Assembly: GCA_017416885.1 (NCBI GenBank)
Contig: JAFQAM010000197.1
Span: forward strand, 1 to 38,802
Reading direction: 5' to 3'
Source of the DNA: Clostridia bacterium
GTDB lineage: Bacteria > Bacillota > Clostridia > Oscillospirales > CAG-272
Length of the DNA: 38,802 nt
This document shows positions 2,352 through 13,179 of the stretch, in pieces. The stretch's first letter is position 1; each line of letters starts with the position of its first letter. Made by a program: the position numbers and the translations under genes. Below the pieces are notes generated by a model that saw nothing but the letters and a program-made list of their open reading frames with translations, made no database searches and was not told the DNA's origin.

Positions 2352-2380
2352 TTGACAAAACCTGAAAACTGTGATATAAT
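2352..2380 (+). promoter_or_regulatory. Consensus sigma-A promoter for tRNA-Leu
   Basis: TTGACA (2352-2357), exactly 17 nt, TATAAT (2375-2380), preceded by TGA (extended -10). It lies 30 nt upstream of the tRNA 5' end. Confidence 0.8.
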
Positions 2381-2410: not shown

Positions 2411-2494
2411 GCGGGTGTGGCGGAATTGGCAGACGCGCTAGACTTAGGATCTAGTGCCAAAAGCATGCAGGTTCGACCCCTGTCACCCGCACCA
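2411..2494 (+). tRNA. tRNA-Leu (anticodon TAG)
   Basis: 84 nt. Acceptor stem GCGGGTG/CACCCGC. Anticodon stem CTAGA/TCTAG with loop CTTAGGA, giving anticodon TAG. It has a long variable arm (class II), a T-loop GTTCGAC, discriminator A and an encoded CCA. Confidence 0.9.
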
Positions 2495-2498
2495 AAAA

Positions 2499-2537
2499 AT
2501 ACTGCAGAAAAGGATACGTTTTCTGCAGTATTTTTTT
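2499..2537 (+). terminator. Rho-independent terminator after tRNA-Leu
   Basis: 13-bp stem atactgcagaaaa/ttttctgcagtat, loop ggatacg, followed by T7. Confidence 0.85.
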
Positions 2538-2539
2538 AT

Positions 2540-2730
2540 CCATTGCGAAAGCAATGGCATATCATCGCCGTAGGCGTATATCATCACCGAAGGTGCATAT
2601 CATCAGCCGTAGGCTGTATTTTCTTTCGCAATGATGATATACTCGTCTGAAAACGAGATATGCTCGTTTTCAAACGGATGATATGCAATTTCTTACGAAA
2701 TTGATGATATACAAGGCTTTTGCCTTGATG
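2540..2730. repeat. Mini-hairpin tandem array A (two halves in opposite orientation)
   Basis: Left half has four hairpins: ccattgc-GAAA-gcaatgg, cgcc-GTA-ggcg, cacc-GAA-ggtg and cagcc-GTA-ggctg. The first three are each followed by (C/T)ATATCAT. Right half has hairpins tcgt..acga, cgttt-tca-aaacg, aatttc-ttac-gaaatt and aaggc-tttt-gcctt, each preceded by GATGATAT(A/G)C or a truncated GAT/TGATATGC form (the reverse complement of the left spacer). 2541-2551 is perfectly complementary to 2623-2633. Confidence 0.75.
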
Positions 2731-2753
2731 TTGATTAAACTTTGTGTTATAAT
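2725..2753 (+). promoter_or_regulatory. Sigma-A type promoter for the four-helix-bundle gene
   Basis: TTGATG (2725-2730), 17 nt, TATAAT (2748-2753), with TGT upstream (extended -10). A GAGGTG RBS precedes the ATG at 2774. Confidence 0.6.
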
Positions 2754-2773: not shown

Positions 2774-3121
2774 ATGTCAAAAAACTATTTATTGATATAT
2801 TCAGAACAACTTGCTACGGAAATAGAGTTGCTTTGTCAAAACTTAAAAGCGTCATCCAACACTCTTTTCCAAATACGCAAAAGTTCAAGCAGTGTTTATG
2901 CAAATATCCGTGAAGCGAATTACGGTCAAAGTAAAGCAGATATGCTTTCCAAATTTGAAATTGCGCTCAAAGAATGTAGTGAAACAGAAGGTTGGTTGCA
3001 GTTGCTATTTAATACGAATGGCATAGATGAAGATATATACAAGAAGCACCGCAATCTTTGTGGTAGAATTAGACGCATGCTGATTTCAAGTTGTAAAACT
3101 CTAAAGGAGAGCTTAAAATGA
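2774..3121 (+). CDS. Four-helix-bundle protein (23S rRNA intervening-sequence protein family)
   Basis: 115 aa. The block ANIREANYGQSKADMLSKFEIALKECSETEGWLQLL matches the hallmark pattern of this family (EA.....S..DF..K..IALKE..ET..WL.LL). Confidence 0.8.
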   Translation: MSKNYLLIYSEQLATEIELLCQNLKASSNTLFQIRKSSSSVYANIREANYGQSKADMLSKFEIALKECSETEGWLQLLFNTNGIDEDIYKKHRNLCGRIRRMLISSCKTLKESLK

Positions 3122-3555: not shown

Positions 3556-3602
3556 TCAAGGTCTTTTGTTGTTAGTAGACAATAAAAACGCATCTATTCG
3601 TT

Positions 3603-3681
3603 AAAATTGAACCCATTTTTTGCGAAAAAATTGAACCTATTTTCTATAAAAATTGAACCCATTTTGCAAAATGAACCCATT
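3603..3681 (+). repeat. Four direct repeats of AAAATTGAACC(C/T)ATTTT
   Basis: Copies at 3603-3619, 3627-3643, 3649-3665 and 3668-3681 (the last is 1 nt shorter). Spacing is 24, 22 and 19 nt. Each copy is an AAAAT-N7-ATTTT imperfect palindrome. Confidence 0.8.
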
Positions 3682-3713
3682 AGGATTTTGTATCCTTTTC
3701 GTAGCCCTTTCAC

Positions 3714-3758
3714 AAAAAAGCCTCAAGATTGTATTCGATCTTGAGTCTTTTTTGTTTT
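3714..3758. terminator. Rho-independent terminator (A-run and T-run flanked, potentially bidirectional)
   Basis: aaaaaag, then stem ctcaagat/atcttgag with loop tgtattcg, then tcttttttgtttt. Confidence 0.75.
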
Positions 3759-3760
3759 AT

Positions 3761-3826
3761 CCGCCCTTAGCGGAATAAATCTACTTTCGTGGATGAAATC
3801 GCTAAAACGATGAAGTCATCCTGAGG
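3761..3826. repeat. Weaker mini-hairpin array D
   Basis: ccgc-cctta-gcgg, atctac-tttc-gtggat (one G.T pair), atcg-ctaaaa-cgat and cc-tga-gg, interleaved with the recurring spacer GGA(A/T)(T/G)AAATC / GATGAAGTC. Confidence 0.4.
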
Positions 3827-3892
3827 CAGTTTGTATTTGAATAATCCATACATCAGTCAGTCTGTTTGATTATTTCCTAATTACTGATTTTA

Positions 3893-3949: not shown

Positions 3950-4816
3950 ATGAAAAACCAAGGAAAAATCATTCTAACCGTTTTTGCTGCCCTTTCATTT
4001 TTATGCGTTATATTTTGGAAAGGTGTATATTATGTAGGAGGCTTATCCCATTTATACTATAGCAAGGATGTGTTAAATAGCGTATATTACTATATCGCAA
4101 TTTCCATTTTCGCCATAGCTATTTTTACAACACTTGTAATTTTAATGTTCAAAAGCAAAGGGACCTTAAAAATCATTTGTATATCATTACTCATTGTTAT
4201 TATGCTTGCCTCAATGGTTATTTCATTTTTTGAAATGCTTGTAGTATCTCTTTTGGGTTCAAACGGATGCTCTTATACAGAAAATATCGACAACTACGGA
4301 AAATACGATGGATATGAAGTGTCATATTTTCCAAAGACTATTACTGACGATATGACTGTAATCAAATTTTCATATTACTATAAGTATGTAGATATTGACC
4401 AAGTAGATATCTATCTTGAGGTTAAATTCAAGGATAAAGAAACAATGGATTTATATTTATCGGAAGCTACAAGTAAATTAAATGACGGCAATGTTATTAA
4501 ATATCAAAGCCCATATAACTCAAAATATACCGATATAATTTCAAATCGTTCGGTAAGATATGGCTCCGAAGGAGATTTAGCATCATATATCAAGTTTGAC
4601 GGAGATGATGATTACAAATATGTAGAAATGGGGTATAATTCTATTTCATATTCATACGACGAGCTTGTTATCATCTATAATTATACATTTATAGGAAGCG
4701 ATATTATGGTGGGCAACAACCCCGATAAGGGCGAATATTATCCCAAATACCTTGAACGCTTTGGCGTAGAGTGGAATCCTAATAATGACTTTATGTATAA
4801 GTATATTAAAGAATAA
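3950..4816 (+). CDS. Hypothetical membrane protein (N-terminal TM helices, C-terminal extracytoplasmic domain)
   Basis: The track ORF starts at 3938, but the GGAG at 3940-3943 is placed to serve the ATG at 3950 (MKNQGKIILTVF...). About 4 TM segments are followed by a Tyr/Asp-rich soluble domain. I recognise no family motif. Confidence 0.6.
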   Translation: MKNQGKIILTVFAALSFLCVIFWKGVYYVGGLSHLYYSKDVLNSVYYYIAISIFAIAIFTTLVILMFKSKGTLKIICISLLIVIMLASMVISFFEMLVVSLLGSNGCSYTENIDNYGKYDGYEVSYFPKTITDDMTVIKFSYYYKYVDIDQVDIYLEVKFKDKETMDLYLSEATSKLNDGNVIKYQSPYNSKYTDIISNRSVRYGSEGDLASYIKFDGDDDYKYVEMGYNSISYSYDELVIIYNYTFIGSDIMVGNNPDKGEYYPKYLERFGVEWNPNNDFMYKYIKE

Positions 4817-12453: not shown

Positions 12454-13017
12454 ATGAATGTATTTGACTTTGACGGAACTATCTATGACGGTGATAGCTC
12501 CTCACACTTTTATTTTTATTGCTTAAAGCATTATCCAAAAACAAGAAAGCTTTTATTCCGCACTATATGGTACGGTATTGGCTTCGGCTTAAAAATTGTC
12601 AAAAAGAAAACCTTCAAGCAAAAGCTATTCAGCTTTGTTTCAAAAATAGATGACCTTGATAAGGCTGTTTTGGATTTTTGGCAATCCCACGAAAAAAACA
12701 TAAAAAAATTCTATCTTGATATGAAGCAGCCAACCGATATTATAATCTCAGCATCCCCCGAATTTCTTTTAAAGCCGATTTGCGACAAATTAGGCGTTAC
12801 AGTAATGGCAACCAAGGTAGATAAAAAAACAGGACTTTTTGACGGCGAAAACTGTCACGGTCAAGAAAAGGTAAGACGATTCTATGAGCTTTATCCCGAT
12901 GCTGAAATAGACGAGTTTTATTCCGACCTCTATTGCGATACCCCTCTCGCTCGCCTCGCGAAAAAAGCCTACATCGTCAAGGGCGAAAAGCTCTCCCCTT
13001 GGAAAAAATACAAATAA
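12454..13017 (+). CDS. HAD-superfamily hydrolase (subfamily IB-like)
   Basis: 187 aa. It carries the N-terminal FDFDGTIYDGDS motif I. A GGAG RBS is present. Confidence 0.75.
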   Translation: MNVFDFDGTIYDGDSSSHFYFYCLKHYPKTRKLLFRTIWYGIGFGLKIVKKKTFKQKLFSFVSKIDDLDKAVLDFWQSHEKNIKKFYLDMKQPTDIIISASPEFLLKPICDKLGVTVMATKVDKKTGLFDGENCHGQEKVRRFYELYPDAEIDEFYSDLYCDTPLARLAKKAYIVKGEKLSPWKKYK

Positions 13018-13022
13018 TTCTC

Positions 13023-13128
13023 ATTTTGCGAAGCAAAATATATCGAAATTTACGAAGTAAATTATATCGAAAATCGCTTGCGATTTATATCGAATTTGCG
13101 TAGCAAATATATCGACACACATAGTGTG
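13023..13128. repeat. Mini-hairpin tandem array B (clearest example)
   Basis: Five perfect palindromes are present: attttgc-GAA-gcaaaat, aatttac-GAA-gtaaatt, aaatcgc-tt-gcgattt, atttgc-GTA-gcaaat and cacac-ATA-gtgtg. They are separated by the invariant spacer ATATCGA (4 copies), with a period of 22-24 nt. Confidence 0.85.
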
Positions 13129-13135
13129 CTATAAT

Positions 13136-13171
13136 AAAAACCTTCAAGGAAACGCACCTTGAAGGTTTTTT
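13136..13171. terminator. Bidirectional terminator (HAD gene and convergent XRE gene)
   Basis: aaaaa, then stem ccttcaagg/ccttgaagg with loop aaacgca, then tttttt. Confidence 0.85.
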
Positions 13172-13179
13172 GTGTAAAT

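Follow-up and report, generated by a model that had tools for sequence, protein, structure and literature searches.

The 38,802-nt stretch analysed here (contig JAFQAM010000197.1 of a Clostridia bacterium; the whole stretch is called the window, and all positions follow forward-strand numbering) carries, behind its tRNA-Leu gene, an array of mini-hairpins joined by a conserved linker. The array is one copy of a widespread, barely described multi-copy repeat module of gut Clostridia. Mini-hairpin arrays with the related linkers ATATCAC, ATTTCAC, ATTTCATC and ATATCGA form with it a wider superfamily, of which the Rfam family Gut-1 is one member. In its active form the module is apparently a folded single strand, with opposite strands being 'sense' in the two halves of the array. 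We tentatively read it, with a probability of roughly 0.45, as a repeat akin to the repetitive extragenic palindromes (REP) and bacterial interspersed mosaic elements (BIME), which would act as a folded single strand and mark off a stable-RNA gene from the promoter that follows.

A family of loci in gut and rumen Clostridia

One genome per species (GTDB) was scanned for three copies of ATATCATC spaced 9-14 nt apart, and at least 120 loci were found. About half of the 120 loci listed are unrelated coding tandem repeats, and approximately 58 have the window architecture almost base for base. The carriers of these ~58 loci are all assemblies of uncultured gut or rumen Clostridia, with records labelled Acutalibacteraceae, Oscillospiraceae, Ruminococcus or 'Eubacteriales', and several of these metagenome-assembled genomes gave two or more loci. 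A first-pass annotation of the window had staked its description on this grammar of hairpins and spacers recurring elsewhere, and it is indeed conserved in many loci and genomes.

Members of the family share one build: a tRNA or tmRNA ending in CCA, a two-way terminator, TTATCC with a first hairpin (hairpin 1), three YATATCAT units, a centre that is complementary to the 5' arm and loop of hairpin 1, and about three ATGATATR units. The mini-hairpins have short, C-G-closed stems that vary in sequence and loops of the form G-N-A or G-N-N-A. Three units make up the left half in 58 of 65 loci and the right half in 45 of 65, where loci have anything from 0 to 6 units. Two main types of hairpin 1 were seen, CCATTGCGAAAGCAATGG and CCAAGCCGCAGGCTTGG, and the centre matches the type. 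Unit numbers are expanded in loci L027, L029 and L072, and two independent samples (L275 and L276) hold an identical array.

Among viral contigs, all 120 matches listed for the same pattern were coding tandem repeats and none was a family member, and BLAST against plasmid and phage collections gave no match. A metagenome scan for orthologous loci, anchored on the upstream gene of an EamA-family transporter, yielded 10 loci and no pair of filled and empty sites: one locus, at 82% identity, stopped short of the tRNA, and the others were ~40% identical and had no tRNA.

Layout of the array in the window

The features of the window are collected in Table 1. The hairpins, the linkers, the 11-bp long-range complementarity and the pairing in the right half, all described in the first-pass annotation, were present when checked against the window, and the array does begin right after the tRNA-Leu terminator. 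The first base of the module is the base directly 3' of the tRNA-Leu CCA. The 5' arm and loop of hairpin 1 double as the 5' strand of a closing stem, in which 2541-2551 is perfectly complementary to 2623-2633 and to which RNAalifold adds 2536-2539 paired with 2634-2637. In the right half a second pairing joins 2644-2657 with 2663-2676. The mirror symmetry that had been ascribed to the array holds for the opposed orientation of the linkers and for the mirrored loops and wobbles, but not for stem length and composition, so the halves are not exact mirrors: left stems are of 4-5 bp and GC-rich, right stems of 6-7 bp, usually starting with CAA and ending with TTG.

Table 1. Features of the window array, its neighbours and the two further arrays.
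Feature	Position	Strand	Remarks
tRNA-Leu promoter	2352-2380	+	perfect TTGACA-17-TATAAT with TG extension; context, outside the repeat
tRNA-Leu(UAG) gene, CCA encoded	2411-2494	+	ARAGORN; Rfam tRNA 56 bits
Two-way intrinsic terminator	2494-2536	strand-neutral	A-tract, 18-nt perfect inverted repeat, T-tract
Left junction TTATCC and hairpin 1	2536-2557	+	hairpin CCATTGC-GAAA-GCAATGG at 2540-2557
Left half-array	2558-2616	+	three units, each an 8-nt YATATCAT linker and a C...G-closed mini-hairpin; GTA, GAA and GTA triloops
Left linkers CATATCAT, TATATCAT, CATATCAT	2558-2565, 2577-2584, 2596-2603	+
Left mini-hairpins cgcc-GTA-ggcg, cacc-GAA-ggtg, cagcc-GTA-ggctg	2566-2576, 2585-2595, 2604-2616	+
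Centre: TATTTT, then CTTTCGCAATG (3' strand of the closing stem)	2617-2633	+	pairs with 2541-2551
Right half-array	2633-2730	-	sense on the minus strand; terminal GAT closes the array
Right linkers GATGATAT	2633, 2677, 2703		degenerate GATATGC at 2657
Right hairpins, four	2642-2657, ~2664-2676, 2686-2703, 2712-2727
Outward promoter TTGATG-17-TATAAT	2725-2753	+	-35 box 2725-2730, TATAAT 2748-2753
Optional cargo: 115-aa four-helix-bundle protein (PF05635 / TIGR02436)	2774-3121	+	multi-copy gene
Second array: two-way terminator, then decayed half-array	~3714-3754, ~3756-3830	+	other linker class
Third array	13023-13127	+	five AT-rich mini-hairpins, loops GAA, GAA, TTG, GTA, ATA; ATATCGA separators

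At its right end the array runs into the -35 box of the outward promoter, as had been noted before; this box is composed of the last hairpin arm and a truncated linker (GAT). A promoter search of the window array found none within it.

The window contains 15 copies of ATATCATC against 2.4 expected. Six of them lie in the array within 150 nt, three on the plus strand followed by three on the minus strand. The nine copies outside the array (6 on the plus and 3 on the minus strand) equal the largest total obtained in 100 shuffles; these extra copies may be just codon usage (Asp-Asp-Ile). The plus strand of the array folds at -80 kcal/mol as compared with -44 for shuffles (z -8.7), and the minus strand reaches z -9.4. 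A chance low-complexity feature or an assembly artefact, for which only the AT-rich context could be cited, is already refuted: the excess of ATATCATC, these z-scores, the recurrence of the family, the identical arrays of L275 and L276 and the covariation described below all stand against it.

Covariation and strand polarity

Across the loci we counted 74 distinct hairpins in left halves and 73 in right halves, of which 60 are perfect in each set. A set of 44 aligned left halves was used for covariation. The RNAalifold consensus places a closing stem around the three hairpins (TTAT-CCAxxGCG... with ...CGCxxTGG-ATGA); 98.3% of cells are paired and 12 of the 22 pairs have changed on both sides. 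None of 500 shuffles reached the observed level of pairing, and slid controls gave 20-43%. The closing stem occurs as the matched types CATTGCGAAAG/CTTTCGCAATG, CAAGCCGCAGG/CCTGCGGCTTG and CAAGCCGACAG/CTGTCGGCTTG, its covariation largely reflecting the two types of hairpin 1. Further variants that match their own centres were seen in L022, L035 and L086 (a change in the loop) and in L023 and L047 (changes in the arms). The cloverleaf-like fold proposed in the first-pass annotation, one stem around three hairpins, is borne out, as the closing stem covaries and RNAalifold favours it over the local hairpin 1. Hairpin 1 and the closing stem are mutually alternative folds.

The loops are strand-specific, being GAA, GTA, GCA, AAA or GNNA in left halves and TTC, TGC, TAC or TTT in right halves. 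The ratio of G·T to A·C mismatches is 11:3 in left halves and 3:7 in right halves, or 18:6 overall in favour of the ATATCATC strand (p ~0.01 by a binomial estimate). A covariance model built from left halves (R1) matched right halves only on the opposite strand, with 24-47 bits at other loci and 27.9 bits on the minus strand of the window (2597-2707). The two-orientation symmetry thus holds in the alignment, and we infer that each half is 'sense' on a different strand.

The linker between the closing C-G pairs is always 8 nt long, and on the duplex the spacing of linkers ranges over 19-22 bp in left halves and 23-26 bp in right halves. Because the 8-nt linker is fixed while the duplex spacing varies from 19 to 26 bp, the constant geometry is most likely that of a folded single strand. 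Helical phasing or curved DNA was rejected on account of the same variation in spacing. The nested pairing of left with right linkers, seen in the minimum-free-energy fold, was also rejected as a conserved feature, since the unit numbers are unequal between the halves.

Genomic address and terminator

Within the family loci an array lies no more than 320 nt behind, and in the same orientation as, 38 of 46 ends of tRNA/tmRNA clusters; a few arrays follow protein genes. The tRNAs concerned belong to at least 15 isotypes, and tmRNA sites were found in L099 and L261, so the tie to tRNA-Leu suggested by the window does not extend to the family. Directly before the array, 57 of 62 family loci have a hairpin followed by T5 and preceded by A4 or more. 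Arrays behind tRNA-Leu, tRNA-Ala, tRNA-Val, likely tRNA-Asn (assigned by eye from its 3' half), tRNA-Gly and tmRNA are introduced by the terminator 'gaagtaacttttgtctaccaaaagttacttc'. Identical combinations of terminator, array and gene stand behind tRNA-Val, tRNA-Ala, likely tRNA-Asn, tRNA-Gly and tRNA/tmRNA 3' ends cut by the contig start. A near-copy of the window terminator, 'tactgcagaaaa...ttttctgcagta', precedes the array behind tmRNA in L261, and a close variant of it the array behind tRNA-Ser in L264. Judged by these sequences the terminator, which had been assigned to the tRNA gene, evidently travels with the array and belongs to the module.

Duplications were found around several modules. 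L012 has a complete copy of the terminator on either side of a half-array. A 27-nt tRNA 3' end recurs in L021 at a distance of ~1 kb, and in L110 a segment of ~330 bp (tRNA-like 3' end, terminator and array) is partly tandem-repeated, the second copy having a shorter array. A tRNA 3' fragment precedes the module in L017, L021 and L102. An open reading frame (ORF) with a C-terminus that, read by eye, resembles that of large serine recombinases ends 100-150 nt upstream of the terminator and array in L021, L091 and L102; L091 has no clear tRNA fragment and L017 no clear recombinase ORF. Together, these ORFs and fragments suggest islands that may have integrated in the same tRNA genes.

One of the arrays at protein genes is that of L005 (minus strand of the locus, ~4290-4400). 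It is of the left type, has three units, and stands behind a T-box terminator and in front of the leuS ribosome-binding site. Because it is inside the leuS T-box leader, this array is part of the mRNA whenever the riboswitch reads through.

The four-helix-bundle gene and its cassettes

The outward promoter of the window array faces a gene for a four-helix-bundle protein, the family of which the first-pass annotation had connected with RNase III-processed 23S rRNA intervening sequences. In the family this gene is an optional neighbour: it stands behind the array in 11 of 58 loci and is absent from at least 37, while ~10 loci end too early to tell, and no link to RNase III or to rRNA intervening sequences emerged. 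Of the 3503 homologues of the protein, the best 120 are, with one exception, 87-97% identical to it, and most homologues lie on contigs under 2 kb. Where contigs reach far enough, the same protein sequence is found downstream of an array that itself follows a tRNA or tmRNA, except in L257 (1-911). There, two divergent four-helix-bundle genes with their own promoters stand on the two sides of one array, which lacks a tRNA, a terminator and hairpin 1, and this shows that either half can face a promoter. Many database entries of the protein (P0016, P0021, P0025, P0060 and others) are 141-177 aa long instead of 115, which looks like an annotation artefact, the called start lying upstream of the true one and probably inside the array.

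The promoter and the repeated linkers could be read as a duplex-DNA operator, in which a regulator would sit on TTGATGATAT motifs, three in each orientation, and control the four-helix-bundle promoter. The last, truncated unit does form the -35 box, the divergent genes of L257 flank one array, and three direct repeats followed by inverted ones recall iteron and operator layouts. Among the parsed array ends, TTGATT-17-TATAAT occurs at nine other loci. A further nine arrays end in GTGATT, none with a good -10 box, and this speaks against an operator, as do the many arrays without the gene, the occurrence of arrays in untranslated regions (UTRs) and the linker spacing of 19-26 bp with no helical phasing. 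Nor would duplex binding explain why the palindromes covary perfectly and carry strand-specific loops, and we regard an operator as very improbable.

Variable ORFs follow the four-helix-bundle gene and often overlap its stop codon. Tandem cassettes, each opening with a terminator and an array, were found in L045, L008, L252, L253 and the window (3714-3830). Modules that are near-identical (94-97% over 1.2 kb) stand behind different tRNAs, with the junction always right after CCA. In L251 (3318-3390), and also in L252, L253 and L255, a cassette of the four-helix-bundle gene and a 157-aa ORF closes with TTATACTACTTTTGGTC, present once or twice. The promoter of the same cassette contains its reverse complement, AAAAGTAGTATAA, and the two genes are thus enclosed by an inverted repeat of 13 nt.

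The cassettes bear on the reading of the array as a single-stranded DNA substrate for recombination or transposition, the folded units of which would be read by a trans-encoded enzyme with the logic of HUH/RAYT proteins (RAYT, REP-associated tyrosine transposase) or of integron integrases. The module, with or without its four-helix-bundle cassette, would then be a mobile element homing to the 3' ends of stable-RNA genes and carrying its own terminator, so that the host gene stays unharmed. Near-identical modules behind different tRNAs, joined always after CCA, favour this reading, and the tandem cassettes, the terminator duplication of L012, the tRNA-3'-end duplications of L021 and L110, the expanded units of L027, L029 and L072 and the strand use mirrored between halves point the same way. 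So do the strikingly multi-copy four-helix-bundle gene and the C-G-closed GNA triloops, which are the classic extra-stable mini-hairpin of DNA. However, no transposase or recombinase was consistently seen nearby (by the N-termini of neighbouring ORFs only, with no family search), and neither a target-site duplication nor an empty site was found. The stems vary from unit to unit, unlike the sequence-specific hairpins of REP or of IS200/IS605 ends, there were no copies on plasmids, phages or viral contigs, and the identity between copies could be gene conversion. We hold this explanation to be doubtful.

A more specific version would make the module the site of an unrecognised cassette system that homes to the CCA end of any tRNA or tmRNA gene, with attC-like folded units (mini-hairpin plus ATATCATC) as recombination sites read by their structure, a two-way replacement terminator, and a four-helix-bundle protein, a relative of Avd (an accessory protein of diversity-generating retroelements) and of the proteins of rRNA intervening sequences, that binds the array. 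This is a long shot. If it were true, the PF05635 family would be linked to insertion at stable-RNA genes, and a mobile cassette of this kind would represent a new way of targeting such genes.

Depth in metatranscriptomes and metagenomes

RNA depths were taken from assembled contigs and hence are without strand information. In the X49 metatranscriptome, contigs that match the array exactly cover 2581-2671 at a depth of 5.5 and 2642-2729 at 8.9, with flanking genes at 0-3. DNA metagenomes show a similar 2-3-fold excess of array contigs over the flanks, and the words of hairpin 1 reach a depth of ~740x flank in them. In a cDNA metatranscriptome the depth was 600-1400 over the tRNA and 0-14 over the array. 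The array-to-tRNA depth ratio in two RNA-labelled runs equals that of DNA metagenomes, which leaves transcription and DNA carry-over unseparated.

These depths matter for the reading under which Rfam files Gut-1 (Gene; sRNA), namely that the array is a structured RNA, whether a small RNA in its own right or the tail of a tRNA transcript that has read through. Its closing stem and three hairpins, or the AUAUCAUC linkers that they display, would bind or sequester a protein or an RNA. The Gut-1 match (34.8 bits, E ~2e-5) and the strong covariation are in its favour, hairpin 1 and the closing stem look like the alternatives of a switch, the exact X49 array contigs are deeper than the flanking genes, and the array of L005 lies within the leuS T-box leader. 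There is, however, no promoter in front of the array, a strong terminator precedes it, and the promoter behind it faces outward. Because wobble and loop polarity flip, one transcript cannot be 'sense' for both halves. The array excess and the array-to-tRNA ratio are the same in DNA metagenomes as in RNA-labelled runs, the cDNA depths drop steeply from tRNA to array, and triloops and GNYA loops are atypical of stable RNA hairpins. A structured RNA is therefore, in our estimate, rather unlikely.

Further arrays and repeats in the window

The first-pass annotation overlooked the Rfam relative Gut-1 and two further arrays of the window (3756-3830 and 13023-13127). The second array is composed of TTTTATCC, a hairpin TCCGC-CCTTA-GCGGA and the linkers GATGAAAT and ATGAAGTC. 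Its layout matches that of the second arrays in L252 and L253, which belong to the GATGAAAT/ATTTCATC class and stand behind cassettes, and the array marks the end of the four-helix-bundle cassette. The third array lies between the stop of a gene for a HAD-family hydrolase (ORF 12454-13017, PF12710) and a terminator at 13136-13172. It is thus in a 3' UTR, because it stands between stop codon and terminator. Its ATATCGA pattern was found in none of the retrieved family loci.

Between the cassette and the second array, four direct repeats of approximately ATTGAACCCATTTT, 22-27 nt apart, occupy intergenic DNA at 3599-3690. They have no Rfam match. Metatranscriptome contigs over 3599-3719 reach a depth of 11 in X49 and 8 in X50, with neighbouring genes uncovered. 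The remaining window is ordinary chromosome of a spore-forming, Clostridium-like organism and encodes AsnA, the EamA transporter, SpoIVA, the Pst phosphate-transport genes with PhoU, and a two-component system.

Favoured explanation

The explanation that we favour, tentatively, is that of a REP/BIME-like boundary repeat. Selection would have acted on a folded single strand and not on duplex DNA, and with two opposed halves one of them would be 'sense' for unwinding or transcription in either direction. The module and its two-way terminator would separate a very strongly transcribed stable-RNA gene from the promoter that follows, irrespective of direction, and each GC hairpin with its A/U-rich tract might serve as a back-up stop or processing site. 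Its copies may spread or be homogenised in the manner of REP/BIME-type repeats. The array does lie between the terminator and the outward promoter, and the same grammar is also found in a 3' UTR (13023-13127) and in a T-box leader (L005).

Several observations weigh against this explanation. Little RNA should reach the array, because it follows an efficient-looking terminator, and the RNA depths do not tell transcription from DNA carry-over. Of 9 additional tRNA clusters in the same loci only about one has an array, so the array is not a general requirement of tRNA genes. The linker is conserved far beyond the need of a weak RNA-DNA hybrid, which points to a specific binding partner. Both half orders exist (reversed in Gut-1 and in the GATGAAAT class), and there is no fixed polarity relative to the upstream gene. 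Template-switch 'correction' of quasi-palindromes, and not selection, could in part account for the perfect stems. As for means of spread, no transposase was noticed among the printed N-termini of 86 neighbouring ORFs, for which no family search was run, and no recombinase or transposase was found among the window ORFs searched against Pfam (up to 25084).

Whatever their function, the modules matter for metagenome assembly and annotation, as they break contigs (cargo homologues lie mostly on contigs under 2 kb) and apparently yield spurious, N-terminally extended ORFs.

Comparison with known systems

Several resemblances noted by eye were dropped without a match or a test: a DnaA box (TTATCCA), a Fur box and the pC194/phiX nick site (CTTGAT), as well as lambda nut boxA/boxB, Rho rut sites, type III toxin-antitoxin repeats and Tn7/Mu end repeats. 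The array does not behave like the integrase arm-type sites of tRNA islands either, for which one specific tRNA target and an adjacent integrase gene would be expected: it follows at least 15 isotypes and tmRNA, and ORFs resembling serine recombinases by their C-termini were seen at only 4 loci, upstream of the tRNA fragment. As for miniature inverted-repeat transposable elements, the 10-14-nt inverted repeat brackets only the left half, and no target-site duplication was seen at module ends.

The 23S rRNA intervening sequences that carry a PF05635 gene are similar in that a gene of the same family stands beside a structured insert at a stable-RNA gene. The module differs from them in lying outside the mature RNA and behind a terminator, and its gene has its own promoter and is absent at 37 or more of the 58 loci.

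The attC sites of integrons are single long imperfect hairpins with extrahelical bases; they need an adjacent intI and attI, and their cassettes are promoterless. The module resembles them in keeping structure while sequence varies, in its short conserved flanking cores, in a fold that appears to be active on one strand and in marking the boundaries of tandem cassettes. None of the attC traits of intI, attI, long hairpin or promoterless cassette was found at the module; no integrase-like recombinase was among the window ORFs searched against Pfam (up to 25084), and none stood out in the printed ORF starts of the other loci.

REP sequences and BIMEs are units of ~35 nt for which roles in termination, mRNA 3' protection and DNA topology have been proposed. 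The comparison with BIMEs made in the first-pass annotation is fair as an analogy of organisation: both are multi-copy extragenic palindromes in both orientations, clustered at gene ends, with conserved stem pairing. The units of the window, in contrast, are 9-16 nt long and vary in sequence from one to the next, the linker being the conserved part. Their orientation is three plus three and not strictly alternating, the host group is different, and the array of the module comes after the terminator and not before it, the third window array excepted. A conserved imperfect palindrome of ~35 nt with 5' GTAG, as in REP, is not present: stems are of 4-7 bp, and GTAG occurs only where the loop is GTA. 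No RAYT was noticed near the arrays, by the printed N-termini of neighbouring ORFs only, unlike in REP systems.

Gut-1 (RF01706) is the only Rfam family that matched the array at a relaxed threshold (34.8 bits, E 1.7e-5, minus strand, 2554-2626). The score is below the gathering score of 50, and at gathering level the array has no Rfam match. Gut-1 was published in one sentence, from human gut only and without context or function (Weinberg et al. 2010, PMC2864571). Our literature search turned up no work on Gut-1 later than 2010 and none on hairpin arrays linked to tRNA genes in Clostridia.

Like the window array, Gut-1 consists of three tandem mini-hairpins with a conserved linker of 7-8 nt (GUGAAAU/GUGAUAU) and comes from gut metagenomes. 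Its seed sequences follow a similar plan. After a tRNA 3' end or the stop of a protein gene come a terminator and a first hairpin; three hairpins with GUGAUAUU linkers are next, and behind a centre to which the first hairpin is complementary stands an inverted half with AUAUCAC linkers. Two of them, BAAZ01025322 and BAAZ01000095, share the setting of the window (position after a terminator, closing inverted repeat, inverted second half), and compound arrays in L072 and L090 combine linkers of the Gut-1 type, AATTTCAC, with ATATCATC units.

The differences lie in the linker, which is (G)AUGAUAU in the window class, where the UGAUAU core is present, and GUGAAAU in Gut-1, in the stem ends, and in the order of the halves, which is <-<-<- ->->-> in Gut-1 and ->->-> <-<-<- in the window. 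Rfam, moreover, models one half only, on the strand with UUC loops. The covariance model of the window class gave no match at E<0.01 with default filters to a genuine Gut-1 copy in L034. On these sequence comparisons the window element is best described as a new class within the superfamily, distantly related to Gut-1 and not a formal member of it. Through this relationship Gut-1, an orphan in Rfam since 2010, gains a host range, a genomic address, a full architecture and evidence on its active form.

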